The notes below the pieces were generated by a model. It saw nothing but the letters and a program-made list of their open reading frames with translations. It searched no databases and was not told the origin of the DNA. A stretch of DNA of 62,956 nucleotides, counting the filler, from Stramenopiles sp. TOSAG23-6 (Eukaryota): the NCBI GenBank assembly GCA_900128565.1. It is 6 parts of 6 records of this genome, joined end to end, with 100 filler letters (N's around TTAATTAATTAA, not from the genome) between each part and the next. Parts side by side here need not be neighbours in the genome. Positions count along the whole stretch, not along the records: positions 24,689 to 36,900 come from LT636211.1; 5 more parts are not named here. One strand, given 5' to 3'. Each line of letters opens with the position of its first letter. Within the stretch, counting starts at the first letter, position 1. This document shows, in pieces, positions 12,255 through 62,343 of the stretch. The translations under genes and the position numbers were made by a program.

Positions 12255-12354
12255 NNNNNNNNNNNNNNNNNNNNNNNNNNNNNNNNNNNNNNNNNNNNTT
12301 AATTAATTAANNNNNNNNNNNNNNNNNNNNNNNNNNNNNNNNNNNNNNNNNNNN
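12255..12354. other. Artificial contig linker
   Basis: N-run + TTAATTAATTAA + N-run, 100 nt. Confidence 0.97.
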
Positions 12355-19500: not shown

Positions 19501-22500
19501 ACCTCGACTCTCCCAAACACGCGAATCTGGAATATTACTCAAAGGGGAGGGTTTCCCATCATGATAAATGGTATCAATACAAACAGATTTCCCAATCAGA
19601 CGGATCATGTCTTTAACCATTGCATTGGCTTTAAATTTTGAACCCTCCTTTGTTACCTTGAAATCTGATTTGACATGTGGGTTTTCTTCCCGAAATGGTG
19701 TTTTGCTGCTTGGTAGCTCTCGGCGTAAAAATAATAATGTGAGTCGCTTACATCGTGGGGACGACCATTCTAATACTGAAAGTAATGTGTCTAGTCCAAT
19801 ATTTTGTAAAATACTAAAATGATCAATTGTTTCATTATCTGCATACATTTGAAGATTGAATTCAACCAGAAGCATTAATCGACTAAACAATATATTCTCT
19901 AAACTTCGGCCTTCATGAAAGGATTTAATTTTCGGGTTGATCGATATAGACATTTCTCTCAACGTTGTAGTTGCCAAGGATATATCTGATCTTAACTTTT
20001 TGAGAATTGTAGTGTATAGTGGGGCAATCATTTTGGGTCTGCGTATATACGTATTTTGATCGAATGTAGAGGATCGGGTACAACCCATCGATATCATTCC
20101 TAAAAGCTTAAAAGCTCCCCAAGCAGCTCTTTTGATGATAGGCAATGCATCTTTCAAATGCTTTGACTCTTGTAAATTATTAAAGTTTGGTTTTGAAGAA
20201 AATTCCTTTTCTGTACGATAAGACATACCCTCATCATTATCATCTTCATCAACGCCAAATAATATATCTAGTTCATCATCAAGCTCCGTGTTACCACTAC
20301 AGTTTGACCCTTCAGCCCTTCCTGGCACAGATGAGATACAAGTTTCATCCTGTGCTTTTACATGCGTCTTTGCTAATGTTGAGACGTCAAGATACGACAA
20401 CAAACATGATAAGAGAGATGACTCTGTCGTTTTCGTTGATTTTTCGATCTTGTCAAACTTCATAGGCATTAATAATAGTATATCTATATCATTTTTGTTC
20501 CAGTCAAATGCAAATGCACCAAAAATATTCTCGCAAAGCTTTGCATGTCCTAAATCATCACAATTATTTGGCGAATGCCTTAATGAATGAATCAGTTGGG
20601 GTAACCAACTAAAAATCATTTTATGCAAAGAATAAAATGTATTCTGAACTTCATGTTGCGTACTTGTTGAAGCCCCTGTAATATCTGCTAGATAGTGTGT
20701 ATAATTTGTGAAAGAGCGCAAATACACACTTGCGTTTTTATTATTTTCAGCTTTTGTGAAGTGAGATACTAATGCACTTCGTATTCGAGGCAAAATTTCA
20801 TTGAAATCGGAAACCATTGTGGTTTTAGAATCATCCGTATCACACGATAAAAAGGAATTTCGAGTACACTGATAAAACAATTCAGATATTGCATTCAACC
20901 CGAAAGCTCGACTGCGAGCACGAGCATTTCGCTTACGCATCATTTTACTTAATACCTTTGGTGGCGCTCGAAAACCTTCAAGAGCATATTTTATTGCAGA
21001 TTCAAGTACTTTATCTAATTCATCCTTTTTGTAAAATTTCTTATCATATAATGGCATTAATTTTAAAGCAAAATCCAGTCGTTCTTCGGCTTGTGATTTA
21101 GCTTCTTCATATGATTTAGGAATATCAAAATGACAAAAATGAACGGTTCGAAGTTTGTAAATTCTAAGTTTACGAGATCGATTTTGAGCCTCTTTATCTT
21201 CCCATTCTCTATGATTAGATACACTATGTGTTTTAGATTGACTCCTCTCAGATTCATACTTCTTTTCCTCTTCCAACAAACGTAGAAGTTCAACTTGTTC
21301 ATTGAAAAGTTCTATTTCTGGCGACCGGCTATTTTTGAATTCTGCATTTTTTTGTTTCATTAGCTTTCGCATCTGTTTGATATTATTCCATACTATCATC
21401 ATTTTTTCTGAAGGATCTTTTGATCTTATAAAGAACTCGCTGTCAACATTGGATTCTTTACCGCGAAAAATATCCATGACTTCTATGGATAAAGATACAC
21501 CGCTTCGCCGAATTGCAATGTTGAATAATTTTCTATCCAATTCAGGAATAAGACACTGATTTCTTCGCTGTAGTTTCGATAAGGGTTTTTTACATTCTAA
21601 CCATTTAATTGCTGTATCAATGACTTCACTAGTTATCTTTTGGTATACTGAAAAAACAGGGCTATTTATCTGTTGTGTCTGTTGTATTTCGTTTTGTACT
21701 TCTGCTGCTTGAACATGAACATTTTTTCCACTTCCGCTACTATCTAAATCATTTGCTACGTTAATACCTGACCATGATTTTTTCCATGTCAAGTCATTCT
21801 TCTGATCTTCAGAAATATATTCAGTGTTGTGCGGATTAGGTCCATTCGACTGCGAATTTCCACCACCAGTTTTACTTTCTAAATCCATTTCTAATCCAAG
21901 ATTATCTTGGCGTCTATTTATGCAATTGAATATAGGTGAATGCAACCATCCAACTAAATTTGATTCTACTGAAGATATTTTTGACCCTCTGATTAGTATC
22001 TCGGACATGTTTGAAATAATGCCGATGACAGTTTTGTGCAATGATAGGAACCAATGAATATTTAGCGGTTCCTTTGAATGTATACAATTGTCTTTAGCAT
22101 TTTGATCCCGTTTCAAAGAATTCACACTGAAACAATCCGAAGAATGTTTTATGTGCGAGAGTCTCTCTTTCTTTCTTCTATTGCAGAATTGGGATTCAGA
22201 TGCGAGTATGTCTGGAAAACATACACACACTTGATACGATAGTGTTGCAAACCGAACCATTATCGGCAATATGTCTACAATAGATCGAGTAGGTAAAACA
22301 TGATTACTATTGCTAGTAAGTAATAAAGAAAGCTCAGCAATAATATACGGCATTGATGTTCCTACAATAGAATCCTTCAATAGCATTTCAATGGCTGTGT
22401 ATTTCCTATAATTTGTGTCTACTTTTCTTTCTTTTATGTCTGTTGAAAAATTCTCTGAAGATAAAACATCTATAACTTCACTACAAATACTACTCGCACA

Positions 22501-24588
22501 TTTTGTAAAATGTATACAAAACCACTCGATATAATTTTTGATACTTCGATGAGACTCATTTCGAGATAATTTAATTTTTACATTTTTGTTTTTGTGCAAA
22601 ATAATAGGAATGACTGAACCAAGAAGAAGACCAGATGCAGCTAATATAGAATCCGGTGGGCGAACATCATCTGATTTCTTTTTAAATTCTGCCAGACTTG
22701 ATATTTTTGATATATTCAACAATTGTAAAAGAAGAAGTGGCTCTTTCGCGAAACTCTCTGTGGACGGATCATGATCAGCTACAGAGTAAATTGCATTCAT
22801 CAACCTTCCATGAACCGTATTTGGGAAAATCATCATTTGTTCTCGGAGCTCAGTTAGACGATGTCTTCCGATAGAAGGGAGTAATAAACGCGAACACGCG
22901 CGGGCTCCTACATATGCATTATGAAAGTCGACATCATTATTCTCGGTGTTTTCTTTCTGAAGAGAAGAAGCAATTGACAGTAATGCATAAACAAGGTTTT
23001 GTGCAGTATCAACACTCGGCTGTGTGTATGAGTAACTAACTCCCGCAGAGGAAACTAGCTGAAAATGATTATTGATCATATTGACTATTTGGCATGTAAT
23101 ATATCTACTTTTGTACTGTTTTGGTTCATCAAATATTTCGTCTTTATGGATTTGCTTCTTGTTTAGTAGCGGTGATTTTGGTGGTATTGGTGGAATCTCA
23201 TCTGATTTAATGGAATTTTCATCAGATGAAGTAATGACATCAACGCTATCCTTTGTAAGTAGATGCTGGCTATATTTTTGATCTTGAATTTCTTCATTGT
23301 GATCAATGGATGCAACAGACGATGAATTTATGAGAACACTAAGTTCAGAAGCACGCGTAGGAGATGCAATCCATTCTCTAGGCCAATCTTCACAATGTGT
23401 GATAGATTCATCAATTCTTAACTCTTTTGATAGAATTTCAATTGAATGGGAATCATCGAAAACACATTTCTTATCAGGTATTTTTACCTTTGAGTGAGAC
23501 AAGGGCAAAGCTAATACTAATCTTGCTCCTACCAATGATCCTAACGCCTTCTTTAAAGCTTCAAATGGACTGGACACAACACTTTTTTCATCTATAGATA
23601 TAAGGTGCATCCCTTTTAAGATACCTGCTTCTTTGTTCATTGAACCTCGCTTCTTTGAAAATCCACTTATTTTTATACCTGTTTGTCTAAATTTATCAAT
23701 ACTCTTCACTTTGATTCCTAATCGTAAACCGTCTAATACAAAGGCACACCTAGCATCAAGATCATATTTGTAATTATATATTGAGGGGGGATATTTTATT
23801 TGACTAGTGTGTACCTCAAGCTTTTGTCCTCGGTCTGATATATCAAGAAGTTCATTGGTTCCTTCTTTGGATATATATTTTATGACTATATAGTTGTCAG
23901 TTTCATTTGGTATATCGATAATAATTGCGCGACGAAAATTCGCAATGCCATCGACAAATTCAATGTCGTTATTATTTTTACACAGAAAAACTACTTGCCC
24001 GACCGTAAGATTCTTCTGATATTCATCGAGAGAGTTATCACATCCTTCGGTTACAATATTTGCCGACTCAGTAATGTAATCGTGACTTTTATTTACATCA
24101 TTGAAATCTGAATGGACAGATTCCTCGATATTATTTTGCTTGTTTGAGAAAGCTAAAGAAGGCTCAATTGTAATAAGACAACGATATAAAATACTCCATA
24201 CTAAAGGATTACTAGTTTCAAGAGCCATGGGAACATCAACAACACCACTTGGCAAAACAGACTGTTCAGCGAAAGCCTTTGGTCTATCATTTGCTTTTAT
24301 ATTTGCTATTGAACTTGTCACAGACCCAGAAAGATTTTTACAACCTGAAAGGGTTGCAAGTGTTTTCATTTCCGCTAGAAGTTTCGATACATATTCCATA
24401 TATGTTTTAGGCTCTATTATATTTGGTTTACTATACGGCGTAGAATCATATCTTGTTTCATCTTCGATACTTCTAGTTGTACTAATATTATCTTCATTAT
24501 TATTTTGGGTGTAAGATTCTACAATATTATCCTCAGTTTTGCTTTCGGTCGAGGAAGAGTCCTCACAGCTGTTTGAATCGTTCCTTCT
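13516..24588 (-). CDS. Giant HECT E3 ubiquitin ligase (HERC/HECTD4-like; PDZ-like and two UBA-like segments; 5' truncated)
   Basis: C-terminal HECT (VKFKGEEGLDWGGLYRD, FLQFVWGRSRLP, LPLAHTCFFQIELPPYSS); frame stays open to the contig end; one in-frame intron. Confidence 0.9.
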   Translation of the reverse strand, partial: RRNDSNSCEDSSSTESKTEDNIVESYTQNNNEDNISTTRSIEDETRYDSTPYSKPNIIEPKTYMEYVSKLLAEMKTLATLSGCKNLSGSVTSSIANIKANDRPKAFAEQSVLPSGVVDVPMALETSNPLVWSILYRCLITIEPSLAFSNKQNNIEESVHSDFNDVNKSHDYITESANIVTEGCDNSLDEYQKNLTVGQVVFLCKNNNDIEFVDGIANFRRAIIIDIPNETDNYIVIKYISKEGTNELLDISDRGQKLEVHTSQIKYPPSIYNYKYDLDARCAFVLDGLRLGIKVKSIDKFRQTGIKISGFSKKRGSMNKEAGILKGMHLISIDEKSVVSSPFEALKKALGSLVGARLVLALPLSHSKVKIPDKKCVFDDSHSIEILSKELRIDESITHCEDWPREWIASPTRASELSVLINSSSVASIDHNEEIQDQKYSQHLLTKDSVDVITSSDENSIKSDEIPPIPPKSPLLNKKQIHKDEIFDEPKQYKSRYITCQIVNMINNHFQLVSSAGVSYSYTQPSVDTAQNLVYALLSIASSLQKENTENNDVDFHNAYVGARACSRLLLPSIGRHRLTELREQMMIFPNTVHGRLMNAIYSVADHDPSTESFAKEPLLLLQLLNISKISSLAEFKKKSDDVRPPDSILAASGLLLGSVIPIILHKNKNVKIKLSRNESHRSIKNYIEWFCIHFTKCASSICSEVIDVLSSENFSTDIKERKVDTNYRKYTAIEMLLKDSIVGTSMPYIIAELSLLLTSNSNHVLPTRSIVDILPIMVRFATLSYQVCVCFPDILASESQFCNRRKKERLSHIKHSSDCFSVNSLKRDQNAKDNCIHSKEPLNIHWFLSLHKTVIGIISNMSEILIRGSKISSVESNLVGWLHSPIFNCINRRQDNLGLEMDLESKTGGGNSQSNGPNPHNTEYISEDQKNDLTWKKSWSGINVANDLDSSGSGKNVHVQAAEVQNEIQQTQQINSPVFSVYQKITSEVIDTAIKWLECKKPLSKLQRRNQCLIPELDRKLFNIAIRRSGVSLSIEVMDIFRGKESNVDSEFFIRSKDPSEKMMIVWNNIKQMRKLMKQKNAEFKNSRSPEIELFNEQVELLRLLEEEKKYESERSQSKTHSVSNHREWEDKEAQNRSRKLRIYKLRTVHFCHFDIPKSYEEAKSQAEERLDFALKLMPLYDKKFYKKDELDKVLESAIKYALEGFRAPPKVLSKMMRKRNARARSRAFGLNAISELFYQCTRNSFLSCDTDDSKTTMVSDFNEILPRIRSALVSHFTKAENNKNASVYLRSFTNYTHYLADITGASTSTQHEVQNTFYSLHKMIFSWLPQLIHSLRHSPNNCDDLGHAKLCENIFGAFAFDWNKNDIDILLLMPMKFDKIEKSTKTTESSLLSCLLSYLDVSTLAKTHVKAQDETCISSVPGRAEGSNCSGNTELDDELDILFGVDEDDNDEGMSYRTEKEFSSKPNFNNLQESKHLKDALPIIKRAAWGAFKLLGMISMGCTRSSTFDQNTYIRRPKMIAPLYTTILKKLRSDISLATTTLREMSISINPKIKSFHEGRSLENILFSRLMLLVEFNLQMYADNETIDHFSILQNIGLDTLLSVLEWSSPRCKRLTLLFLRRELPSSKTPFREENPHVKSDFKVTKEGSKFKANAMVKDMIRLIGKSVCIDTIYHDGKPSPLSNIPDSRVWESRGFGSGVTQQAISSDTVLLLQTLLKVKSNIDVGNGISVSWSSIVADEISLQLSNIHEMYEDLAIEYKDTDELSYQISSHIAAVGAICVIGGIAPYCFRGCRVLPLPVAQENTDTMRLLGISNREDAANMGTYLFHNVRGDIVHVYYPENSFQMNVNDDVFSEIDEVGSINRIFGIGIDATIIKMPIHTLVPVTTSSFPTELANLLRPGSKLASHLLGKRNTRKTNSFGLASNDTSTKPLLLRLFITVLQNMQQDKTDTSPTINSKDNFPGNPTHTEQTDPLLLSANLKQWQSSFHVCVIRLLSRICSHTILAEQILSCCTYDKPLINIIPNYAGDTQKKYQKKDSIKMPQFLHLLSSLSTSATNLPSLISLRWLEARAVILEQRIIESKDYNFFVEDSRQSSGSDPQQGDSGNTKQIKRMESANTLMHLVGGTYNLQTCQRSLAMNGDDINRAAEWLLTHAGAYVMGGGMYGDSNDDDISTTGDVSNCTANRMNQSQISFGGRNETREATARQLALTAGLPPKLCSLALEISHDEADRAMGWLLDYGQQYLPGISDGKYSGKFVGDNFNRSLSEDEGNAAMCEDVFDDEYDATTMAESSSERHDEDGGSGRMDKNSENGISSCLASENEMFQEYFGGSRGAATGLLERLTGDTAAVARFLRPGTLITVTSKVGPIASVAGITGVVCSLQTNDVNENNISEDEAGNEESSEDIVVSSQSVVLKIFDADIGLHYTQCVPIGQCRRHMLIFGTRLGGRGGKNQSNYAEMLNLLKLHQDTNSNLVIQYARRAMIGLMSAWSARKPFTMFLDTIGGCERLLILSKLMIATESSSRYGDYPGYSKKIAAKKEASRDKGNHDSFISEDSSSSFVRVLKSKLRQALQLSNNDAESIFVRDCAWHVMESTSLITGIAITSRTVESLHPYFPICDYFGVVRFEGAKALQLRFDPRCALGIRSLSTHDTALEIYQADQVTLLEAAAGVFHEKKLIRRFRFEEDENGDPFKGENYVVHNEAFMYRFWSVPRYTNTDNSRCSSNRFGGMDWGFRFDVSPMRGLQWLREEQVLNSPSLEWACWMLGVLLEEENKLARQKHQVHFFNHQKQQKNLIQRNTNDNTRNVGSISTDLKCNRNGVYCADVVAALSRYLRTPGAPYKSRIVAVLTQLLSSPEKFRSTSSLNIGSSDSNTKSKMSKGVSNERKMYVGILDLRPLRYLPTAVVRMVDHAKKKGDIFLPPALQRLAELAAAVKAFPSRAQGGHDTWHFSWPPSLPTTKKYSRGLFGLRSETGLDPPLINRLLHHTKDGVSETQLDSLIAVVEISYTLLHGSRLSDTMASRIWLHANGYKDKNTSRLKSKSAKYDCEQRVLAMSHWKYQMDVSLICWCNNQEIEKGGSLLIMDCDQVTLTKKCKLKYHAISNVPLSDLRYRFALLQFWNKKFADCIELVDLQASSSSWSVGCLLSETLSHCVFREVKTKLLRSAIEASQWVNPSTDRRIKRIRRQITSINNQVDKKSISDSRKKKLQQKINELSTLLASVVEKALNAKPPNLVVQLDNELVRHTLEGGEKLRDPQFSRGLFAQAFSRLHHVSCRRLRAKLDSRNRLFSVKFKGEEGLDWGGLYRDTLSRIVLELFSGDSRSINLMMLCPNGRNGEGTNNDKFLPDPRHTSKISIEMFEFLGKLIGISLRTSAALPFEFAPLVWEQLANPNSNSSQETGLASVHVVEARRLASIEEFSAYYDNKSGEAVEDSHINFVNSSMELNEIEKAFHEKFPDLNFTIGTLGPSTAAIDNDLDVHTWISELVPGGRDVAVTWVNRLEYVNRARKHVCFIFFSNSIFFVRNFVPNDFFFKYFSKIHLLHESYQQVAAIRRGIVTLVPDRALRLLNWNELEVCVCGNPNIDIEIIKKHTTYHGYSASDSPCRRFWRVLKSFSQDDKSKFLQFVWGRSRLPRESVWPRPFKLTKGNSDTSRLPLAHTCFFQIELPPYSSDEVMRQRLLTAIHYSGGEFLIR
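13978..14067 (-). mobile_element. Introner-like intron GT-AT, 90 nt, in frame and stop-free
   Basis: Removal gives EYVNRARKH|LLHESYQQVAAIRRG with normal HECT spacing. Confidence 0.92.
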
Positions 24589-24688
24589 NNNNNNNNNNNN
24601 NNNNNNNNNNNNNNNNNNNNNNNNNNNNNNNNTTAATTAATTAANNNNNNNNNNNNNNNNNNNNNNNNNNNNNNNNNNNNNNNNNNNN
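24589..24688. other. Artificial contig linker
   Basis: N-TTAATTAATTAA-N. Confidence 0.97.
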
Positions 24689-27600
24689 ATGTTTTTGAGT
24701 CAGTAAAATATAACTGTACGTTTTCATGATGAATTTTTTACCTGAATTTTTTACCTAAATTGTTTTTCACAGAAAATCGAAAGATTTTGAATCTAACGTA
24801 TTACAAACAAACATATTTTTTAACTATACATGTTTATTACTCGCTGGCCCAGGACTCTTAATCACTACAGCAATTACAGGTGGATTTGTCAAAGGTGTTG
24901 TCTATCCTGATTGGTCATGGGAATTATCGTTTTTGTTCGGGACGTTATTGTCAGCAACGGATCCCGTTGCTGTTGTCTCAGTCTTAAAAGAGTTAGGTTG
25001 CAAAAGTTTGTCCGTTACTATTGAAGGGGAAAGCTTACTCAATGATGGTGTTGCTGTTGTTATTTTTTCAATATTATTTCCATTTGTATCAGACAACGAA
25101 AATTTTGATGAGTCTTTTGAAAATATTTTTGTATTTTTTCTTCGAATGGCTCTCCTTGCCATAGTCTACGGTGCAGCCTCTGCTTGGTTAACATCGACAT
25201 GGCTGTATTATATATTCAATGATGGTATTTTAGAAGTAACAATTACTTTATTTTCAACATACTTGTTGTATTTCATTGCCGAATTTTATATACACACCTC
25301 CGGTGTACTGTCTGTAGTGGCATATGGTTTATATTTTGCGTCAATACATGTGACGTGCATTTCTATTTTGCACCTAACTTTGCACCTAACGATTCTTTAA
25401 AAATATTTTTTCGCAGTACATGAGCATGTGGTTACAGTATGGGAAGTATTTTCTTTTTGTGGTAACACTATATTATTTGGGTTAACAGGTTATGTTATAG
25501 GTAATTTCGACTTTTCGTATGTAGAGACGTATGATTGGCTGATTCTTTTTGTCTTATATGGTGTATGCACGGGTGCCCGTATTGTTGTCTTTGCCTCGAC
25601 ATATCCAATTCTAAAGAAAGGTGTGAATGGAATGACACCTGGTGATTGTATAGTTAGTATTTGGGGCGCTTTGAGAGGTGCTGTAGGTTTAGCACTTGCT
25701 CTGATGGTTCATAGTGATGCATTTACTATAGGAAAGTCATCCAAATATAACGAAGAAGGACGTTTGGTTCTATTCCACACATGTGGTATTGTTGTTCTCA
25801 CACTATTGGTGAATAGTACTTCAATTGAGAAATTATTGGATCATTTGGGATATACCTACATTCCACCCCAACAACAAAAAATTGTACAACTGGCATTAAA
25901 GCAGCTTCATGACGTAGCTGAAGATGAAATCCAACTTCTACAAAAAGACCCACTTCTGGCTTGTGCTAATTGGGATCATATCAAGAGTGTCGTGTTCGCC
26001 ATGGATGATATCCATATCGCTGATCAGTTAAGTGAAGAGCATCTAAACAAAGAAATCACTGATTCTCATACTATTGCAGAATCTCGAAGACGATTTCTAT
26101 TGTCAGTAAAGGCTGGGTATCATAAAATGTTTGAACACGGAATTCTTTCACCACAAGCTTTACGACATTTACTTGAAGCAAATGAAACTGCATATGATCA
26201 TCAGTATAGGCTTCATGATGAATGGGAAGCACTATTGGATGAAACGCCATTTTTAGCATATATTGCAAGAGATACAACACTTGCCCAGCATGAGCATGAT
26301 GATATTATGCAAAATACGAGAAAGAAGAAGAGGGGATTACATAAAGTTCTTAGCGAGAACGCAAAAACAATGCTATCTAGTATCCTTCCTGGCCAAGAAG
26401 GTAAAAAGGTGCGCGAGCAAGAGAGAGCGAGTATGTTTGCTTGGATGGCTGATTTATACCTCAAAGAAGTTGTCGTTGAAGAAAGTGGGCAGCGTCAAGG
26501 AGTTTTTGCATGGCTTTTACGGCGATTACTTGCAAGTCATGTATGCCTATGTTGTAACATGGTATCTGGATTTTTACATGCGCGTGAAGAATCTATGGAT
26601 GTTATCGTCAAATTTCTACATAATCATGGTGACAAGCAATCGTCTGGTCATGCACATGCAGATGCTGATGCTGTATTTGAAGCACAACGTACTTGGTTAC
26701 CCGCTTTGAGAGGGATGTATGTTTTCATCATTGCTTTGTTTTTTTTTTTTTCTTACGAAATTTCATACCTAACCCTTTCCTTTGTAAATAATTTTCACCG
26801 TACATGGTACACAGAGATATGAGTACAGCAACTCGAATACTTCTTCGTTGTCAAGAACTATTTCCTGATATTGCAGCTCAGAGTGAAACGCTTATTGGTG
26901 GACGTCATGCAATCAATATACAAAGAATAACAGTTCGCGAGTTGTGCCATGAAGGTCTTTTAGATAAAGAAGAAGAAGAAAAATTAATACATCAGCTTAA
27001 TGCGAAAATCAAACGATCACGGATGTGGTTACCACCCGCGGGTACTGGAGGAAGCCACAAAGCCATTATGTTACATAGTCTATCTTGGCTGAAATCATTA
27101 GGAGAAGAAACAAGTACAGTGTGCAATAGCCCTAAAGAACATAAAATAGTAGACGAGGAAGGCAAGGAAAAGATGTTTGAAAAGTTATTAGAAAACACAA
27201 AAACACTGAGTTTTTCTCGTATGGGATCTCATATTTTAGAGGCGAATGAACTTTGTAATACTGTATTTGTAGTTGCTCGTGGTAGTGTAGAAGTGGTTGT
27301 TCCTGAGACGATGTTACAAGCTGATAAAATACCAAAAAACGACAATTACAATGAGGAGAAATTTTCTAGTGTTACTGAAACTGAGGACTCCGGTAAGAGA
27401 AGTCAAGGAGGAATTCGTGTACTACAGTTAGGTAGGGGTAGTCCATTTAATCAATTGGCTTTTCTTACTCAAACAAAGAATCCATTTATGATACGAACTT
27501 CGTCAAGAATTTGTGTTGTTTTTGCAATTAGTGGAGACTTTGTTCGCACCCAACAGAGTGTTATATCCGCATTATGGCAGCAAGTTGCAACGGACATGGC

Positions 27601-28402
27601 TCTCCCTCTTCTTAGTAAGGCCTCGCCATGGAAAGATTGGACGCCTAGAGGTCTTCGGCGAGCTTTGACTTCGTGGATAGTGACAATGCCTGCAGGAAAA
27701 CTGTCAACGGATCCAGTTTTAGCAGAAAAAATGAAAAACAAAGCGGCAATTCCAGTTCATTTTAAACGACCGGTAATACTATTAACTGGATCAGCGACAC
27801 AACCAGAGCATGAGCATTTAAATGATGATATTGATCAAGATCATGATTTTGAGGGTGAAGCTAGTATCAACTATTCACCACCATGTGTTATGCGTTCTCA
27901 AGATTCCGGATTACCAAATGCACATTATATTGTTTGGTTAACCCCTGGATCTCGTGTCTTTGGTCAAAAACAAGCATTAGTTGGCGTCATTAGATCTGCA
28001 GAAGAAATGCTTGAAGCTCACATTTCTAGAAAAGATCAAAATATAATGTGTAAAAGAATGGAAAATAATGATTCTGGTAATGTTCAAAATATGGCTAGAT
28101 CCATGATGACAATGATTGCGTCAAATTCACAGGCAAATTCTACGGATACCGATGATAAAATAGAAAAAGCATTAGCCGATATGAGGCATGCGCATCATGA
28201 AGCCGCAATACATCATAAACAGCATCATGGAATATTGGATAATGATGACATTGATGACATTACAGAAGAGGGTAAGAAACAGAAAAAGAAATTATTCAAT
28301 AGATCCAGGTGGCAAAAAAGTATGGATAGAGTCCGGGGTAAAGATTTTCTGAAAAAGTTAAGACCAACAAAAATAGAACCAACTACACAAAAAAAATCTT
28401 AA
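24689..28402 (+). CDS. SOS1/SLC9C-like Na+/H+ exchanger with C-terminal cyclic-nucleotide-binding-like domain (5' truncated)
   Basis: LLAGPG, LSATDPVAVV, IEGESLLNDG, SGVLSVV, WGALRGAVGLALAL; CNBD-like VFVVARGSVEVV. Confidence 0.9.
24716..24831 (+). mobile_element. Introner-like intron GT-AT (degenerate)
   Basis: T|GTACGT...TATACAT|GT gives NCLLLAGPG. Confidence 0.75.
25350..25421 (+). mobile_element. Short degenerate introner-like intron GT-AT
   Basis: Two CACCTAAC motifs, AAATATTTTT, ends GTACAT; phase 0; donor uncertain. Confidence 0.6.
26717..26805 (+). mobile_element. Introner-like intron GT-AT
   Basis: AT|GTATGT...CGTACAT|G joins two long ORFs. Confidence 0.85.
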
Positions 28403-28550
28403 ACCTGGTTATAAAAAACAAGATGAAATTAGATAGTTTTAGATGAAATTGAATTTTTGGAAAGACAATAACAAAAACAGCTGTTGATGTTTAAATTATT
28501 TTATAATATTATATATAAAATTGAGCAATGTATATCATACTCTCAATTAA

Positions 28551-29859
28551 TTACTCAACTTTAGTTGTTAAATCAGCTAACAAGGTACCATGTGAATGAA
28601 AAAATATGTCAATTTTAGGTGTTTTTTTGTTAGGTACAAAATTTACTATGAAAACAAATTCAAAAAACAGCCAGAAAGAAAAATAATCGTTGGGTCAGAA
28701 TTTTCTATCCAAGAAAAAGATAAATGAATTTGAAATTCATCTTGAAAACACACCCTAGGGATTGGGATAAACCAATATAAAGAAAAATGTTCCCCAAATA
28801 TTTCCACAAGTCCTACATGTATTTTGGAAAAATATTTCAAAAAAAAAAAAAAAAAAATTTGTTAGGTACAAAATTTCGTACTAAAAAAAAAATCGATTTT
28901 TTTGTAAAAAAAAAGATAAAACATACATATACACTGCGGTCATCTTTTCCATCTTTATTTTGCATTCTATCGATTGTTGACAAATCATCGCGAACGGCGT
29001 CGTACTGGTCACAAGACATGTATTGTGAAAAAATATGTTGCATTCGGAATTGTAAAACAAAATCATTAGGTACGAAATTTCATACTAAAAACAAAAATTT
29101 GAAATTGATAATGAAAATGTACATTGCACAGACAAATGCAAGAAAGAAGATAGAGCATATGCACATTATGATGCAAACTAACATTCCCCATGGCGGAAGC
29201 GGATCAATACATATAGTATCTCGACTTAAGCAAAAAATGCCACGTGATAAAAACATAGTCACTGCAAAGGCTTCACCTAAAATTACATAAAACAGAAATA
29301 ATAGAAAATATTTCTGATTATATTTCCCCACACAATTGTTAACCCAAGGACAGTGGTGATCCATTCTTTGGACACACCGATTACAAGTACTACAATGATG
29401 TACCCCTGGCGTCTTATAGTTCAGACAATGTCGGCATATTCTTAAATAGCTATCTTGTAAGTATGGCTCCGCGCTCTGGCGCGATTTAAGATATTCTTTG
29501 TAATCCTCTAAAGTAACTTTATTCAATTCTTGACAACCTGGGTCAGTGAGCATACACCGTAAGTGGCATAGTGCAGACATAAAAGATAAAAATGTTATTA
29601 CAAGCACACATAATATTCCAGGCAAGGACCACTTGAACCATGGTAATATCACTATGTTAACGACAGACCACTCCGTCAACGCAATAACGAAGAGGCCTAA
29701 TCCAGCACAAAATATTCCACAACAGTCGAGATGTACACACCATGCAGACAAGCCACAACTATTACAATGTGGACTGTCATCGGAACATTTAAGACCAAAA
29801 ATTCGCCAACACGACAGCCACGCATCACAACATGGCTCTTCTAAACCATCACAACACAT
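28551..29859 (-). CDS. DHHC palmitoyltransferase (ZDHHC3/7-like); 4 exons
   Basis: HHCSTCNRCVQRMDHHCPWVNNCVG; spliced C-terminus STIDRMQ...EIFGEHFSLYWFIP. Confidence 0.92.
28590..28753 (-). mobile_element. Introner-like intron GT-AT
   Basis: GTGTGTTTT donor, AAATTTTGTACCTAAC core, ends TTCACAT. Confidence 0.7.
28817..28926 (-). mobile_element. Introner-like intron GT-AT
   Basis: TAT|GTATGT...AAAATACAT|GTA. Confidence 0.88.
29018..29122 (-). mobile_element. Introner-like intron GT-AT
   Basis: AT|GTACAT...CAATACAT|G. Confidence 0.88.
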
Positions 29860-30065
29860 GGTAATGATTTCCCAAAATCAATTGATGAGAGTCTCTTTTT
29901 TACATTGCTTAAAAAAAAAGAAAATTGACTACCCATAACCCTAACCCTAGTGACCAATTAAACCGATGAACGGTTAATTTACTCTATCTTACGCGTATCT
30001 TCTTATTTATTTTGCAATTATACGAACCATTGTATCCACCCAGAGAGACAAAATTGACTTAGAAG

Positions 30066-32451
30066 ATGAATTGCAGACACGTTAAAACTGGAGTAATGTT
30101 GTTTTTGTTGTATTCAACACAACTTATCAATTGCGCAAAAATGGTAGTGTTTATGTTACCAGGAGAACAGCCAGGCTCAACTTTTGATGAGAAAAACCCG
30201 TTCGAAACGAATCCACGTCTTGAAAATAAACAGTGGGATTGGATTAAAGCTGTAAATGACTGGCATTATGCGATGCTCAACGACGACTCTCGAAATCATG
30301 CTTTCAATAACGCACTCAAGGAGGTTGTACGTCCAGGATCAATTGTTCTTGATGTTGGCACAGGTTCTGGGCTTCTTGCAATGATGGCAGCGCGTGCTGG
30401 CGGGCCTACGTGCGCTGTAGTAGGTATAGAAGGAAATAGCGACATGGCTGAGATAGCCAAGCTTGTTGTTCAGGATAACCAACTACAGGATCAAATTACT
30501 GTTTTAAATAAGAGATCTAACAAATTTTCCGTTGAAGAATTTCATTCCACCGTTGAAAATATTTTCGAGAGACAATCTCTAAATGTTGAATTACCTACAA
30601 GTCCAAGTAAAAATAATGAGAAAGATTTAGCTGACGTCATAGTTGCTGAGTTATTTGGTTCTGCACTATTAGGTGAAGGAGCATTATATTTCATTCGCGA
30701 TGTTAGGAAACGGTTGTTAAAACCTGGTGGGACGATCATTCCAGCAGCTGGCGCACAAAATTTACGATTAGTAAACTCAAAATCTTTAGGAAAAATTACG
30801 AGTGTTGACAATTGGGATGGATTTGACTTGAGCCGTATGTACGTGTTTACCATGATTTTCTAATTTATATTTTTGTACCCATTTCAAAGGTAACTTATTA
30901 CCTAATGAATTTCCAATTTGATATATTTCCCTAAAATATATGAATATAGCACGAGATACTGACACATTATTTACAAAGCGATTGGGTGTACCACGTACGT
31001 TTTCAAAATTGAATTTTAACCTAACTTTTTTTTTTATAGAAAATCTTGTACCTAACGATTTTTTTTCTCCAAAAAAAAATATATATTTTTTTACAATACA
31101 GATTATATGCTTGGACTAGAATCGCTCGCCGTTGATATTCCAATATATGACATAGACTTTCATACTTGTAACCCCGAAGATATTCCAGATTCTACAATAT
31201 ATTTTCGAATTAGGGTTTTGAAAGCAGGAATAATCCATGCTGTGTCTAATCATTTTACCCTTTTTCTTGATCGAAATAGAAAGATTACAATAAGTTCTGA
31301 TGTACGTTTTCATTTTTTTTTGCCTAATTTTGTTTCGTACGAAATTTTGTACCTAATAACAAAAATCTTGTAATATTTTTTCACAATACATGCACCTGAG
31401 ATACCAAGATGGGTTCATTGGGGGCCAAGAATGCAGTTGATTGAAGACTGGGACTTTTCTGAGGATGGATCTGGTGTAGAAGAAAAACGTTCACATAATT
31501 TACCTAAGTTGTTTCATGTTGAAAAGGGTGAATTTATTGAAGTTATAGTAAATTTCGCTGGGCATCACGGTCAGTACGGAGCTATGCAAATACGACTAAA
31601 TAGAGTTGATCCACCATTGCCTAATTTATATAGTGTACTTCATAGTAATCTTGGTATAGTTAATACAAATGAAACATATGAGAATGACATTCATGCCTTA
31701 CAAAAATTATGTAATACAGATATAATTATTGAAGTTTCTGTTACAAATGCAAAACAAATAACTTTGTATGTTTTATATGAATTTCTAATTTAATTTTTTT
31801 TCATACGAAATGTAGTACCTAACGATTTTTTTTTTGAAATATTTTTTCACAATACTTGTTTCAAACGAGAGGACCGAAGTGGCAAATCAAAAAAGACGCG
31901 GACACGTTTTGCAGAAACAACTTTTTACTTGGAAAGGGTGTTTCGTGTATCAAGACTTTAACAAAAACTGCAGAAAATATCCGTGCAAACTATGTACGTT
32001 TTCAAATTTAAATTCGACTATATTGTTTTTGTACTTAATTTTATACCTAACGAATTTCATTTTTTTTGAAATATTTTTTCTCAATGCATGATGATTCTGA
32101 GGACATATGCAAAATGGGAAAAGTAAATTTCAGTAATAAAGAAGACTGTGGTAATTACATATCATCTCAGTGTGGTTGGCTACATTTTCACGAAATTGAA
32201 GGCATTTTATCGAGCGACGACAAAAATAAAGAAAAACGTATTGTTAAAGATAGTATATATAAAAGGCGGGGAAGTACTAGCAATGATGTATGTTTTATTT
32301 TTTTTCAAATTCGATTTCTTTTTTCGTACGAAATTTTGTACCTAACGATTTTTTTTTGAAATATTTTTCCAAAATACATACCATTTCAGAACGTCCTGAA
32401 TTACAGGATATGGGTGGAATTGAGTTAGAGGGACCCATGGCAAGTTGGTAA
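30066..32451 (+). CDS. Protein arginine methyltransferase-like (PRMT7/9-type SAM domain) with hydrophobic N-terminus; 7 exons
   Basis: WHYAMLNDDSRN, VLDVGTGSGLLAMMAARAG, ADVIVAELFG, LLKPGGTIIP, RWVHWG; six element introns give one open frame. Confidence 0.82.
30839..30941 (+). mobile_element. Introner-like intron GT-AT (degenerate)
   Basis: AT|GTACGT...AAATATAT|G gives FDLSRMN. Confidence 0.78.
30995..31101 (+). mobile_element. Introner-like intron GT-AG
   Basis: Same body, ends CAATACAG; phase 1 in frame. Confidence 0.88.
31302..31391 (+). mobile_element. Introner-like intron GT-AT
   Basis: GAT|GTACGT...CAATACAT|GCA. Confidence 0.88.
31766..31857 (+). mobile_element. Introner-like intron GT-TT
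   Basis: TT|GTATGT...CAATACTT|G; next exon open in that phase. Confidence 0.75.
31994..32089 (+). mobile_element. Introner-like intron GT-AT
   Basis: TAT|GTACGT...CAATGCAT|GAT. Confidence 0.8.
32288..32379 (+). mobile_element. Introner-like intron GT-AT (near-consensus copy)
   Basis: GAT|GTATGT...AAAATACAT|ACC. Confidence 0.88.
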
Positions 32452-32544
32452 TGTTGTATCATTTATAATAAAAAAGAAATTCAAATGTATAAAATAGTTC
32501 AATTATACTAGCTTGAACCAAATGTATAAAATAGTTCAATTATA

Positions 32545-35404
32545 CTAGCTTGAACCAAAAGTTTTCTCCCACTCTTTGAAGCGCGTGCAGAGCTCCGGTG
32601 ACACAGAATATCGAGTTTTCGATATTGCATCTGAAAAGTCAGACACTCGGACACACCCAATCTTATTTTTATTATTGCATTGGTGATCCATATTTTCTTG
32701 TCGAAGACGAGCAAAGTCTTGGGGAGAACATTTGCTGATAAGTCGCCGCATAGGCATCATTGAAGCTTCACGACAGACAACACGAATATCTGAACCGGAT
32801 AATCCTTCCGTTTGATTAGCGAGTTTGGCTACTGAAAGGTCAGCACTCACGGATATATCAGATAAATTCAACTCGATCATCTCTTTGCGAGTTTTAACAT
32901 CAGGCAATGGAATATAGATACGTTTTTCCAGTCTTCGTAATAGAGCACCATCGAGGTCCCATGGAGTATTGGTGGTAGCCAGAACCATTACATGGTTAGA
33001 TTCACTTTCACTAACAAGTCCATCCATTTGCGTAAATATTTCAGACTTTAGACGTCGACTCGCTTCATGCTCTGCTTCCTTGCCGCGCTTTGAAACTAAA
33101 GCATCAATTTCATCTATAAAAATAATTGATGGACTCCTTTCCCGTGCCATTTCAAATAACGTTCTCACTAAACTTTCACTTTCGCCTCTCCATTTTGTGA
33201 CCAATGTGGAAGCAGACATATTGAAGAAAGTTGTTCCTGAAACACCAGCTGTTGCTTTGGCAAGCATTGTTTTCCCAGTTCCTGGTGGGCCAAATAGCAA
33301 TACCCCCTTCCAGGGCTGGCGCAAGCCAGTGAACAAATCAGGCATTAGTAGAGGTAATACTACGGCCTCGCTGAGCAATTCTTTTGCTCGACTAAGGCCT
33401 GCAATATTATCATATGTAACTCCTACATTATGAACAATAATATCTTGCTCTATTATTCGTTCTTGCGATGTTATATTCCGTTTTGTTCTATTTCGCGTTT
33501 TTCTTTGTGTAGTACGTCGCGTGTTACGTCCATTTTGTATATTATATTTATGCTGATTTTGTTTATTTCGAGGCAGTTTGGTAATTTTGTGTGGGGTTTT
33601 GATTTTTCGCACCTTTGAAATATTTGAGACATTATTAGAAAGTTGTTGAGGTACACATGGAGTCATTGTGGTAGATGTTATCATTCTCCTGCGGGTGATT
33701 TTTCTTTCTGATGAAGCACATTCATTGCGTCTATTTGTTTTGCTGTTAGCACATTCATTGCGTCTATTTGTTTTGCTGTTAATTCTTTGTTTACCCTTTA
33801 AAGACATTACACCAACATTTGATACAATAGATTTTGTCTTTGACTTTGACTTTTGGTTTTCTTTTTTATCTATATAAACATCAACAAGTCTCTCTATAAG
33901 ACTCTTTGATACCGTAGAAGTAGAATGTACCGTCGACGCTTTTTTAAAAGTAGTGCACTTTGTAGCCAATGTTGGCGGAATTTGTTTTTTTTCANCNTNA
34001 AAAANAACATGTTTTNAAAAAGGGCCACTCTCCCAAAATGTTCTTACGTTGAGGATTATCAGGGATTTGATTCATTTTAACTTGCTTCGATATTACATTT
34101 TCACTATTTTTAATGGATGAGATATTCGTCTTGTTCGATTGATTTTGTTCTATCATAATGTTTGAATTCATTATTATTTCTTTGAACTTCATTTTAGATA
34201 TTTTAGTTGATGGTATACCGCAGGCTATATCCCAGAGTTTTCTATTTACGTGGTTTCCTACATGGCTCAAAGGTATAGAGTAGCTTCGGTTGTATTTGTT
34301 CTCAATACTACTATTTTTATATTTCGTTTCCTGTGAAATAATTTTAGTATCTGGTATTATTGGCAATTTAGACAATTTGAGTACCGACGAAGTTTTTGTT
34401 CGATTTACTTCAAATTTAGTAAAATTAATACGACTTTGTGCTGCGGCTGCAATACCAACTTCCCCATGTAATTTGTTTGTTGAAACATTGATATTTTTCA
34501 TAATGTCAAATCCATTTAGATTTACATCAACTTTATCTGTGCTATGTCGGATCTGAACGTAAATATCATGTAAATGATCCGTGGCTACATCGAAACATGA
34601 TTGCGATAGTTTAGTCGTATATATAATTGACCAACAATTTTTCGGGATACAATTTGTAGGATTACAAGGTGTTGTATACAAAAGTAATCGTGCAGTTCCT
34701 TCAAAATCTCTCTCTTTTACATCCGAATCTGATTTTTCGTCCGATGAACTTTTTGCTTCTTTATAGTCTATATTCATGATTATAAATGAGCCTTTTGGCG
34801 TATTTGATACCAAAGTGTTTGATACAGAATATCCTAGCACTAATAAAATCCTTCGTACACCTGAAGTGTCACAGTCACAACAAATTTGTGTGTGAATTTC
34901 AAAGTCATCATTTAAAATTGGTGGAGGAACTTCAACTGGCTCTAAAGGCTTAACAGAAGTATCTCTTGCACTTTGTACTTTTGAATTAAATGTACCAATG
35001 AAAAGTCTATTTATTTCATGACTGGTATTCTCTATGGATGTGAATAATTGTGTTTCTTCCATCCGACCGTTGAACGTTTTCTTCTCCCAGAGTTTACCCA
35101 CAGCGAGCGGCCTCGACAAAAACTGCGGAACGCCTAAACTAAAAATTAACGAGTCTTCTTCTGGAGTTAAACATGTTTCTTCTGCATTTAAAATATGCTT
35201 ATTTCCTTTTTCACTATCGATAGATTTCTGTAAATCAAATTTGAATTCAGAAAAATTCGTTGTAGACTTTGTCAATATCGTTTTTGCTGAGAATGTTTTC
35301 TCGTGTTTTGAATTGTTTTTGTGAAGACTTTCATCACAAACATTTTTATCACTCTTTAAAAAATCAAAAGCGTTTACTTCTTCATTTTTTCTGACTGATA
35401 TCAT
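32545..35404 (-). CDS. Katanin p60-like (KATNAL2-type) AAA ATPase, probably one gene with the upstream ORF
   Basis: PWKGVLLFGPPGTGKT, KWRGESE, IFIDEID, EHEASRRLKSE, RRLEKRI; break at ~33970-34020 coincides with N bases. Confidence 0.8.
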
Positions 35405-35687
35405 TATGTATAATGTATACCTATCCGAGGTGGAATTTTGGATAGAAACTAGTCGATATCTTTGAAGAAGAAAACAAAGAAGTCTACTGTAGTTAAAAAA
35501 TTAACCGTTGTATTTGAATATAATTTTCAACGGATGCCCACGATTACACGAAATTGCTAAAAATCGTGGAACAAACCTGTCAATTTATAATTTTTAGATA
35601 GTCAGTCAGTTTATCTGGATAGTAGTTCAATTTGATTATTACAAGTTTGGAAAAGTCAATTATTGACTCTAGAAAGGCTGTACCAAG

Positions 35688-36900: not shown

Positions 36901-37000
36901 NNNNNNNNNNNNNNNNNNNNNNNNNNNNNNNNNNNNNNNNNNNNTTAATTAATTAANNNNNNNNNNNNNNNNNNNNNNNNNNNNNNNNNNNNNNNNNNNN
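36901..37000. other. Artificial contig linker
   Basis: N-TTAATTAATTAA-N. Confidence 0.97.
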
Positions 37001-37417: not shown

Positions 37418-37520
37418 ATGTATTTTGGAAAAATATTTCAAAAAAAAAAACTAAAATTTGTTAGGTACAAAATTTCGTACGAAAAAAATAAATTCGAAAT
37501 TGAAAAAAAATAAAACATAC
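37418..37520 (-). mobile_element. Introner-like intron GT-AT (possible chimeric junction)
   Basis: Near-consensus copy between racemase and C2-like exon. Confidence 0.85.
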
Positions 37521-38975: not shown

Positions 38976-39166
38976 ATGTATTTTAGAAAAATATTTCAAA
39001 AAAAAATCATTAGGTACAAAATTTCGTACGAAAAATAAATTCGAAATTGAAAAAAAATTTCGTATGAAAAAAATAAATTCGAAATTGGTAAAACGTTCAA
39101 TTTTGAAAAAAAATCTAAAAAAATTTCTTAGGTACAAAATTTCGTACGAAAAAAATTAAAACATAC
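38976..39166 (-). mobile_element. Double-core introner-like sequence (probable chimeric junction)
   Basis: Two TTTCGTACGAAATTTTGTACCTAA cores; flanking phases incompatible. Confidence 0.8.
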
Positions 39167-48906: not shown

Positions 48907-49040
48907 ATGGTTAAAACCAGCAACATCTCCTTTTTCTGTAATGGCAAATGCTTTGTATATATGACCCATTTCCTGTGGCTCCATCAATCTTTTATATCCA
49001 TCCACGATATTTTTTGCTTCTTCTTCATCAGCAGCATGCC

Positions 49041-49129
49041 ATGTAAAGAAATATTTGAAATTATAAATTTGTTAGGTACAAAATTTGGTGCGAAAAAAAT
49101 TAAAATTAAAATTCATGATGAAAATGTAC
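49041..49129 (-). mobile_element. Introner-like intron GT-AT before a short unidentified terminal exon
   Basis: AT|GTACATTTTCATCATG...GTACCTAAC...TTTACAT; a second partial copy lies at 49131-49195. Confidence 0.7.
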
Positions 49130-49195
49130 ATGGCAAAAAAAAAAAAAAAAAAAAAATAAAAAATTTGTTTAGGTAAAAAATTTTGTACCAAAAAA

Positions 49196-49295
49196 NNNNN
49201 NNNNNNNNNNNNNNNNNNNNNNNNNNNNNNNNNNNNNNNTTAATTAATTAANNNNNNNNNNNNNNNNNNNNNNNNNNNNNNNNNNNNNNNNNNNN
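49196..49295. other. Artificial contig linker
   Basis: N-TTAATTAATTAA-N. Confidence 0.97.
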
Positions 49296-61450: not shown

Positions 61451-61550
61451 NNNNNNNNNNNNNNNNNNNNNNNNNNNNNNNNNNNNNNNNNNNNTTAATT
61501 AATTAANNNNNNNNNNNNNNNNNNNNNNNNNNNNNNNNNNNNNNNNNNNN
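61451..61550. other. Artificial contig linker
   Basis: N-TTAATTAATTAA-N. Confidence 0.97.
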
Positions 61551-61613: not shown

Positions 61614-62312
61614 ATAGAGTATAAATCTCAATTTTATTACTTTGAAATTTATGATTATTTTCGTAAATTATTATTGACAGTTTCTGTAGCAGGGGTTTCA
61701 AATGAAAGTTATGATCAAATATTTTTTTCATTAGTTTGTGTAATACTTATGGTTGTGATGTAGGTTATTTTTTTATGTTTTGAAAAAAAAAAAATTTGAA
61801 TTTTTTTTTTTTTTGAAATTTTTTTTTGAATTTTTTTTTTGAAAATTTTTACTAAAAAAAAAAAAATATATATATATATATATATGTTTTCACAATACAG
61901 ACATATTACAGTACAACCATATGCACTACAATCAATGAATGTGTTTGCATTTATTACAATGATTGCATACATTTTTGTGTTGTTGATTACTTTATTAATG
62001 AAAAAAATAGGAAATACAAAAGCAGAATTTGTAGGTTTTTAGTATGAAATTTTGTACCTAACAAAATTTTTTTGTTTTTTTGAAATTTTTTTTTTTTTTG
62101 AAAATTTTTTTTTTGTTTTTTTTTTACTATGAATATTCAACAAAAATTGATTCTTTTTTTTTAAATCCTATATAGTATGTACATATCTAACATTATAAAC
62201 ACAAACATATTTATCACTTTTTAGAGTGTAGCAACAACAATACTGAATACATCAACAAATTTAGATGTGAATGATGTATGTTTTATTTATTTTTTTTTTA
62301 AATTTGAAATTG

Positions 62313-62343
<31 letters not shown>

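Follow-up and report, generated by a model that had tools for sequence, protein, structure and literature searches.

Here we describe a family of introns of ~90–110 nucleotides (nt) that begin with GT, end predominantly with AT and are removed without a scar from protein-coding genes in a 62,956-nt stretch of DNA from Stramenopiles sp. TOSAG23-6 (GenBank assembly GCA_900128565.1). This stretch, hereafter the window, is 63 kb of eukaryotic, gene-dense sequence with ~35% GC, joined end to end from six parts, and it contains 35 complete copies of the family after curation together with 7 partial copies that keep the 5′ end. The explanation we favour, at a probability of about 55%, is an introner, that is, a transposon-made intron, which entered marine stramenopile exons and whose 2-bp target-site duplication supplies the 3′ end of the intron.

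The focal intron of the analysis lies in a PRMT-like gene and reads ...aacTT, then GTATGTTTTA...TACCTAAC...CACAATACTT, then gtttca, placed between two in-frame exon pieces. Its parts are as follows.

31766–31857, plus strand: focal intron, family copy of 92 nt, exon end TT and intron end TT, placed by the open reading frame (ORF) left after six-intron removal and by alignment to the homologue P0241.
31764–31765, plus strand: terminal TT of the upstream exon, candidate upstream copy of a duplicated target.
31766–31774, plus strand: element-carried donor GTATGTTTT.
31816–31823, plus strand: element-carried branch-site motif TACCTAAC, 35 nt from the 3′ end.
31856–31857, plus strand: intron-terminal TT, used as the 3′ splice site in place of AG and a candidate for the downstream copy of a duplicated target.

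Removal of the six family copies from the PRMT-like gene (with ends AT, AG, AT, TT, AT and AT) left a single ORF, and its product aligned with P0241 over 389 residues (40% identity), to the last residue, with the junction at 31766 free of gaps. P0241 was found by an exhaustive homologue search, and a search of the exon 31392–31763 against longer proteins alone gave no match.

A family profile built from 16 copies gave 89 nhmmer matches in the window (E up to 10). Besides the complete and partial copies, three further fragments keep only the 3′ part, each partial copy or fragment being degenerate or located next to an N gap or a window edge. The family layout consists of a GTAYGTTTT donor, the branch site TACCTAAC and then ATAC plus two bases, and the aligned copies have in common GTAYGTTTTA, AAATTCGA, TTTTCGTACGAAATTTYGTACCTAACGA, and TTTGAAATATTTTTCMAAATAC plus two bases. 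The 35 complete copies occupy unrelated housekeeping genes, always on the sense strand of the gene (35/35). Their profile scores range from near-consensus (50–68) down to barely recognisable (5–20), which points to a family that has spread over a long time, and three copies (11787, 39166 and 497) are composite or partly duplicated. The view of the first-pass annotation that this is a repeated, evidently mobile family bringing its own donor and branch site agrees with these 35 complete copies and with the high contig depth described below.

The 5′ dinucleotide was GT in all 35 complete copies, and the 3′ dinucleotide was AT in 29, TT in 2, AG in 2, AC in 1 and TG in 1, giving a non-AG 3′ end in 33/35. 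The penultimate intron base was A in 32 of the 35, and the last base was T in 31, G in 3 and C in 1. A Y-A-Y triplet closed the intron in 30/35, and the last three exon bases before the donor were Y-A-Y in 17/35. Among the 33 copies scored for the branch site, its distance to the 3′ end had a median of 36 nt and was 32–48 nt in most, with no AG in between in 28 and with such an AG skipped in the remaining five. The tract directly before the 3′ end is A-rich. The first AG downstream of the 3′ end lies 2–52 nt into the exon and is unused according to the frame and homology results below. To judge from these sequences, the 3′ splice site may be a Y-A-N triplet picked by its position. Folding of seven sequences (six copies, one also with flanks) gave z-scores from +0.8 to −2.9, with no strong RNA structure in any of the seven. 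A palindromic core, found as GTACGAAATTTYGTAC at 32326–32341 and in the corresponding part of other copies, runs up to the branch motif CTAAC, and at the focal intron the majority letters of seawater contigs at 31812 and 31814 make the core GTACGAAATTTCGTAC, a perfect 16-nt palindrome ending at the start of the branch motif; a hairpin formed there might either expose or hide the branch site.

Intron boundaries were examined through reading frame and homology. In the frame test, the donor was fixed at GT, the cut was placed after the two terminal bases, and ORFs of at least 20 codons were required on both sides. In-frame ORFs were joined in 30 of the 35 complete copies, the exceptions being 24716 (by a gap), 28753 (short flanks), 49129 (by another copy and a gap), 62276 (inner N gap) and 39166 (off by 1 base). 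In addition, homology backs seven junctions (31766, 41077, 58214, 58442, 11365, 8914 and 9147). Removal of GT..AT at 41077 yields LPIL–HRLL, identical to the relative P0003 and gapless against oomycete sequences, and the junctions at 58214 and 58442 are gapless against eleven Asparaginase_2 homologues. Removal of GT..AC at 11365 rebuilds the TGG tryptophan codon of the lyase, which a 2-nt shift destroys, while removal of GT..AT rebuilds an arginine of the carbamoyltransferase at 8914, where a 2-nt shift produces a stop codon, and a proline of the same protein at 9147, which the shift loses. Registers can be told apart at the mismatched copies because exon end and intron end differ there; the residues at the mismatched copies and the gapless junctions therefore identify the introns as GT...AT, with AC, TT and AG variants whose cut falls at the same position in the alignment, and not as AT...AC. 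Removal is scarless at GT...NN, mismatched copies included, so that the six-intron ORF, the gapless junctions and the rebuilt residues bear out the scarless splicing at a non-AG 3′ end that had been proposed earlier.

The sequence of the window was also compared with seawater DNA and RNA contigs over 24689–33994, with the mismatched copies 41077, 8914, 9147, 11365 and 58442 lying outside this range. At the intron 26717, the end of one RNA contig (26714) and the start of another (26804) correspond to the predicted junction in an equivalent register, and a third RNA contig retains the intron. Contig joints in this comparison are swamped by other genomic copies of the element, there being at least 240 joints, at least 679 loose ends and at least 11,658 pieces besides those listed. 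At 25364 on the plus strand, 15 nt inside the degenerate intron 25350–25421, the match to the window breaks off in one seawater DNA contig and in one RNA contig, and the sequence of this intron therefore differs between populations.

The relation between exon end and intron end bears on the origin of the terminal dinucleotide. The exon dinucleotide before the donor was AT in 25/35 complete and 4/7 partial copies (the partial ones at 49, 12203, 36813 and 10976), which on recount reproduces the 29/42 given by the first-pass annotation. AT makes up 9.5% of window dinucleotides, yet exon base −2 was A in 28/35 and −1 was T in 31/35. Exon end and intron end were identical in 25/35 complete copies, 23 of them AT/AT (exon end/intron end, here and below), against a permutation mean of 21.0 (p = 0.0087). 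Both TT-ending introns, 31766–31857 and 58214–58329, follow exons ending in TT, as noted earlier, and the chance of both TT ends falling on the 4 TT exons is p = 0.010. The ends match in 11 of the 12 best-scoring copies, and the flanks of AT are roughly strand-symmetric, with C at −3 in 13/35 and G at +1 in 22/35. The ten mismatched copies, among them the AC/AT, TT/AT and AT/AG cases already on record, comprise AC/AT twice, TT/AT twice, and AT/AG, AT/AC, AC/AG, GG/AT, CT/AT and GT/TG once each.

The imperfect inverted ends described previously are also present. In copy 32288, ATGTATGTT and AAAATACAT form a 9-nt inverted repeat that is 89% complementary with the AT flanks included; when the flanking AT is left out, pairing covers 6 of 7 bases in the youngest copies (7 of 33 scored) and 2 to 5 of 7 in the others. 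These ends hold an A-run in a T-rich intron, at the place where a pyrimidine tract would be expected. Taking these observations together, we consider the terminal AT moderately supported as a duplicated target and the inverted repeats plausible as element ends. Two other insertion schemes were considered. A 3- or 4-bp duplication (ATG or CATG) is rejected on the 12 best copies, which have only AT in common, with C at −3 in 7/12 and G at +1 in 5/12. A Helitron-like insertion between A and T would give ends TG...CA and leave the TT/TT pairs unexplained; Helitron ends are TC...CTRR.

Under the favoured explanation, a ~90-nt mobile element would have colonised protein-coding exons of a marine stramenopile, each copy bringing a GTAYGTTTT donor, T-runs and the branch site TACCTAAC in the right arm of a central palindrome, and inserting so that it stands nearly always directly after an exonic AT. 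The host spliceosome would cut at the 5′ G of the element and then ~32–48 nt past the branch site, after ATAC plus two bases; as these are usually AT, and sometimes AC, TT or AG, a GT...AT intron would leave without a scar. Most likely, a cut-and-paste DNA transposase working on the short inverted ends GTATGTT and AAAATAC would have duplicated a 2-bp target site, whose downstream copy would be the two terminal bases of the intron, and copies now found at sites other than AT would have changed later towards the preferred A-T end. Movement as DNA, the duplication itself and recognition of the 3′ end by position rather than by AG are all parts that we infer. The broadest form of this proposal is an abundant uncultured marine stramenopile that has dispensed with the AG rule and cuts at a set distance past an element-borne branch site, with thousands of copies of a 90-nt transposon, whose 2-bp AT duplication would be the shortest known for an introner, as nearly its only kind of intron; to this composite claim we give somewhat less than an even chance.

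Several observations weigh against a duplicated target. The excess of matching ends rests on the two TT/TT copies, one of which, 58214, ends in a heavily mutated ..TTTTT run that allows several registers, and the ends mismatch in 10/35 complete copies. Conserved residues at 41077, 9147, 8914 and 58442 show that the original target there was TT or AC, whereas the intron end is AT, so the duplication model must add a later change to AT each time. Nor does the match rate fall steadily with model score (11/12, 6/12 and 8/11 by tercile). The upstream (A/C)-A-T resembles the usual exon-end pattern with T replacing G, and the inverted ends are short, pairing at 2–5 of 7 bases in GTAC-type copies, with a 5′ GTA that splicing needs anyway. 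Composite copy 39166 misfits the frame by 1 nt. Direct support for splicing from RNA is weak: the two contig break points fit splicing of the 26717 intron, but other RNA contigs retain introns. There was no empty allele among the seawater matches listed for 24689–33994, and the search for a transposase or a longer, autonomous copy with the same ends, suggested with the original proposal, came back empty for the window. We know of no transposon superfamily that a 2-bp AT duplication would fit. Published introner duplications are 3–9 bp in the available text of PMC9860276. The earlier claim that the duplicated target serves as the 3′ splice site is thus upheld in part: the covariation and the TT/TT pairs speak for it, and the ten mismatches, including four AT ends at non-AT targets, speak against it.

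The same mobile intron might instead make no duplication, the terminal AT being carried by the element (as a unit GT...ACAT, or as TG...CA inserted between A and T) and the exonic AT reflecting an insertion-site preference or a donor-side splicing preference for (C/A)AT before GT; spread would then rely on a transposase that leaves the target unduplicated, or on an RNA intermediate that is reverse-spliced and reverse-transcribed. This account, which we hold to be unlikely though still a serious competitor, explains without extra mutation the six AT-ending mismatches at TT, AC, CT and GG exons, including the four targets fixed by residues, and so needs fewer changes than the duplication. It also accommodates the terminal CAT kept in the very degenerate copies 25350, 26717, 28590 and 497, which fits a splicing signal, and the flanking bases (A or C at −3 in 23/35, G at +1 in 22/35), which resemble MAG before GT and G after the intron, with T for G. 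The restriction of all 35 complete copies to the sense strand counts in its favour as well, but such orientation is also expected from selection after DNA insertion. It leaves to coincidence that both TT-ending introns follow TT exons (p ~0.01), and its RNA route would not require the short inverted ends, whose A-run lies within a T-rich intron. Empty sites would be identical under both insertion models because splicing is scarless.

Mobility itself is supported by abundance. The bin holding the 32288 copy had a summed contig depth, a measure that is not a copy number, of 49,934 in seawater DNA run X2, versus ~5–12 on most bins without a family copy, and of 7,187, 11,662 and 436 in three RNA runs. 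Contig depth over the element is thus thousands of times that of its flanks, which shows a very abundant repeat. A metagenome scan with the element core found one extra locus, a family copy reading AT and then GTATG..ATACAT on an unrelated contig (L001), and a scan of a viral collection with the same core found no match. That there is no mobile family at all, only ordinary old introns made alike by long, rigid splice signals (donor, branch site and 3′ motif), is very improbable in our view. Intron-poor protists often have extended, uniform splice signals, and in the degenerate copies here it is chiefly donor, branch site and terminal CAT that are retained. Against this, the similarity spans parts with no known role in splicing (AAATTCGA, TCGTACGAAATTT and TTTGAAATATTTTT), copies are composite or partly duplicated at 11787, 39166 and 497, assembly gaps fall inside copies, the depth contrast is of the size just given, and the one clear non-family intron, at 43974–43871 on the minus strand, shares with the family only GTACGT and the TACTAAC branch site. 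A generic GT...AG scan of the window returned 286 noisy candidates, nearly all inside long ORFs, of which only this intron was convincing.

Least credible is a reading of the introns two bases to the left as AT-AC introns (ATGTA...ATAC) of the U12 or the U2-type AT-AC class: the GT..AT, TG..CA and AT..AC registers give the same mRNA in the 23 AT/AT copies, and the aligner put the two RNA contig break points (26714 and 26804) in the AT..AC register, but the 2-nt shift also turns LPIL into LPIH at 41077, besides the stop at 8914 and the lost tryptophan and proline at 11365 and 9147, the CAG-ending copies 30995 and 58773 mark the cut site at the same aligned position, and U12 introns have an ATATCC donor and a branch site 10–20 nt from the 3′ end, in place of the GTAYGT motif and the median of ~36 nt found here.

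The family invites comparison with known introners. In Micromonas pusilla and Aureococcus anophagefferens, the target duplication supplies one splice site (Huff, Zilberman & Roy 2016, as summarised in the available part of PMC11282704). By that account these introners, like the present family, are short, non-autonomous, many-copy elements inside genes, with inverted ends (putative in the present family), one splice site borne by the element and scarless removal. They differ in using GT/GC...AG sites and duplications of at least 3 bp, whereas here the candidate duplication is the 2-bp AT, so that the 3′ site is non-AG.

Non-canonical introns of the tunicates Fritillaria borealis and F. pellucida were reportedly described by Henriet et al. 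in 2019. In F. borealis, non-AG 3′ ends arise from the target duplication (PMC11282704, available part). AT is the commonest 3′ end in both species, making up 44% in F. pellucida and 34% in F. borealis (Soo et al. NAR 2026, PMC13326754, in its accessible text), and the same text describes a Y-A-Y triplet that ends introns and often precedes the donor, and proposes an origin from miniature transposons with duplications. The present family is Fritillaria-like, as far as those accounts go, in mostly breaking the AG rule, in having AT as its commonest 3′ end, and in its Y-A-Y intron ends and pre-donor triplets (30/35 and 17/35). Fritillaria 5′ ends are, in the same accounts, mostly AG (AG/AC and AG/AT), whereas the donor here is a strong, canonical GTAYGT in 35/35; and the Fritillaria host is a chordate, whereas here the host is a stramenopile protist in which one family makes up nearly all introns of the window. 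A duplication of U2AF is reported for F. borealis in the accessible literature. Rfam and transfer RNA scans of the window gave no match, small nuclear RNAs included.

Introners of Amoebophrya have direct repeats of 3–5 nt across their borders and inverted repeats of 8–20 nt by which the two ends of an intron can pair (Farhat et al. 2021, PMC7789003, available text). Within what is stated there, they share with the present family the repeated introns, the non-canonical splice sites and, as candidate features here, the repeats at the borders and the inverted ends, and differ in having no dominant dinucleotide pattern, where the window has uniform GT...AT, ~7-nt inverted ends and a normal donor and branch site. 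The small size, short inverted ends and candidate 2-bp A/T duplication also recall miniature elements of the Tc1/mariner kind. These elements (Stowaway-like) make a 2-bp TA duplication; the repeat flanking the present family is AT, and the window holds no transposase. A TA register is excluded because the invariant adjacent G and C would then be host sequence, contrary to scarless splicing.

Transposon-made introns with a duplication-derived splice site are thus known, non-AG acceptors among them, and what appears to be new is a GT...AT family in a protist host. In large introner surveys, unfamiliar splice sites are admitted only with the backing of RNA data (PMC12130899, available text). One MAST (marine stramenopile) genome paper, in the part available, mentions few, long introns in MAST-4, and the main text of the MAST genome papers, to the extent accessible, has nothing on this intron type. 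The literature searched held no report of this introner type for MAST; supplements and key primary papers lay outside that search, and a prior mention is possible. If the favoured explanation is correct, the family would be a convergent protist parallel to the Fritillaria tunicates and a second independent lineage with mostly non-AG introns, allowing a comparative test of AG-less 3′ recognition in a case cleaner than Fritillaria, since donor and branch site stay canonical. Were a 2-bp duplication to serve as acceptor, the survival of insertions would be shown to be limited by the spliceosome rather than by the element.

From sequence comparison, we take the host to be an uncultured, MAST-type marine stramenopile, because of its MAST and oomycete matches and its presence in seawater. 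The exon 41176–42966 is 88% and 84% identical to two MAST-prefixed EukProt coding sequences and 56% identical to an unnamed third one, oomycete helicases come next at ~40% identity, and the sequence of the stretch is present in seawater DNA and RNA runs. A tunicate host, to which animal-like Sin3 look-alikes had pointed, was rejected in view of the exon matches. In the predicted coding sequences of close relatives (P0001, P0002 and P0122), 12–18 residues are skipped after the site of 41077, the join at the site of 58214 is wrong, and the models run into the introns at 58442 and 58773, which suggests that the relatives carry the same kind of intron, missed by annotation. For these ocean grazers, gene catalogues probably carry errors at most introns, because the gene models of relatives fail at exactly these sites; on the favoured explanation, published gene models of these organisms would be wrong at most introns.

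The remaining complete copies are listed below as exon end/intron end, followed by the non-family intron.

138–228, minus strand: older copy, AT/AT.
368–497, minus strand: older copy with inner part duplicated, AT/AT, cofilin gene.
4620–4708, plus strand: older copy, AT/AT.
5004–5097, plus strand: family intron, AT/AT.
5426–5517, plus strand: older copy, AT/AT.
8064–8161, plus strand: family intron, AT/AT.
8557–8647, minus strand: family intron, AT/AT, aspartate carbamoyltransferase gene.
8794–8914, minus strand: older copy, mismatched AC/AT, carbamoyltransferase gene, ..RIQRE–RF.. rebuilt.
9050–9147, minus strand: family intron, mismatched AC/AT, carbamoyltransferase gene, proline codon C–CT rebuilt in ..FVA–PD...
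11111–11220, plus strand: family intron, AT/AT, argininosuccinate lyase gene.
11365–11456, plus strand: family intron, AT/AC, argininosuccinate lyase gene, TGG tryptophan codon rebuilt.
11615–11718, plus strand: family intron, AT/AT, argininosuccinate lyase gene.
11787–12040, plus strand: composite 254-nt intron, AT/AT, consisting of one truncated copy and, downstream of it, a second whose donor is dead (TTATG).
13978–14067, minus strand: family intron, AT/AT, HECT ligase gene.
24716–24831, plus strand: older copy, CT/AT, just after an N gap.
25350–25421, plus strand: degenerate copy (GTGACG..GTACAT), AT/AT, Na/H exchanger gene.
26717–26805, plus strand: family intron, AT/AT, in-frame flanks of 438 and 531 codons, RNA contig ends.
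28590–28753, minus strand: degenerate copy, GG/AT, short flanking ORFs.
28817–28926, minus strand: family intron, AT/AT.
29018–29122, minus strand: older copy (GTACATTTTC..), AT/AT, DHHC gene.
30839–30941, plus strand: older copy, AT/AT, within the six-intron gene ORF.
30995–31101, plus strand: family intron, AC/AG, within the six-intron gene ORF.
31302–31391, plus strand: family intron, AT/AT, within the six-intron gene ORF.
31994–32089, plus strand: family intron, AT/AT, within the six-intron gene ORF.
32288–32379, plus strand: copy nearest the family model, AT/AT, 92 nt, hidden Markov model score 68.5.
37418–37520, minus strand: family intron, AT/AT, internal TAG skipped.
38976–39166, minus strand: composite 191-nt copy with internal duplications, AT/AT, flanking frames disagreeing by 1 nt.
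41077–41175, plus strand: family intron, mismatched TT/AT, DDX24-like helicase gene, unique frame and homologue junction.
49036–49129, minus strand: older copy, AT/AT, directly beside another partial copy and an N gap.
58214–58329, plus strand: second TT/TT intron, older copy with a 3′ T-run (..CACAATTTTT), junction gapless against Asparaginase_2 homologues.
58442–58548, plus strand: family intron, mismatched TT/AT, cysteine codon T–GT rebuilt, gapless homologue alignment.
58773–58868, plus strand: family intron, AT/AG.
62276–62421, plus strand: copy with an internal N gap, AT/AT.
62602–62707, plus strand: family intron of uncertain register, GT/TG, or 62600–62705 as GT..AT.
43871–43974, minus strand: non-family intron, GTACGT..TACTAAC..ATAG, canonical AG end, exon ending in GT.

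In the composite copy 38976–39166, a cut one base earlier or two bases later would fit the frame, and an assembly error or another junction is possible. At 49036–49196 on the minus strand, the start of the copy abuts the ..TTTTGCCAT end of another partial copy without an intervening exon, as could result from a tandem insertion or from insertion into the terminal AT of the older copy.

The window ORFs encode Sin3, a DDX24-like helicase, an AAA ATPase, CEP44, a HECT ligase, aspartate carbamoyltransferase, argininosuccinate lyase, the PRMT-like methyltransferase, an Asparaginase_2 protein, RRS1 and others. A single ORF of 3,706 codons with a C-terminal HECT domain occupies 13516–24636 on the minus strand and is interrupted, in the part seen, only by the copy at 13978–14067. 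Five scaffold gaps (12255–12354, 24589–24688, 36901–37000, 49196–49295 and 61451–61550) each consist of 44 N, the linker TTAATTAATTAA and 44 N, the linker giving stop codons in all six frames, and a sixth gap at 62344–62392 is a plain run of 49 N. Most scaffold gaps cut through copies of the intron family, and the repeat therefore seems to break the assembly. Clusters of single N letters also occur inside coding sequence at 33995–34016 and 59798–59812, the first of which splits one AAA-ATPase gene into the overlapping ORFs 32545–34071 and 33992–35500.

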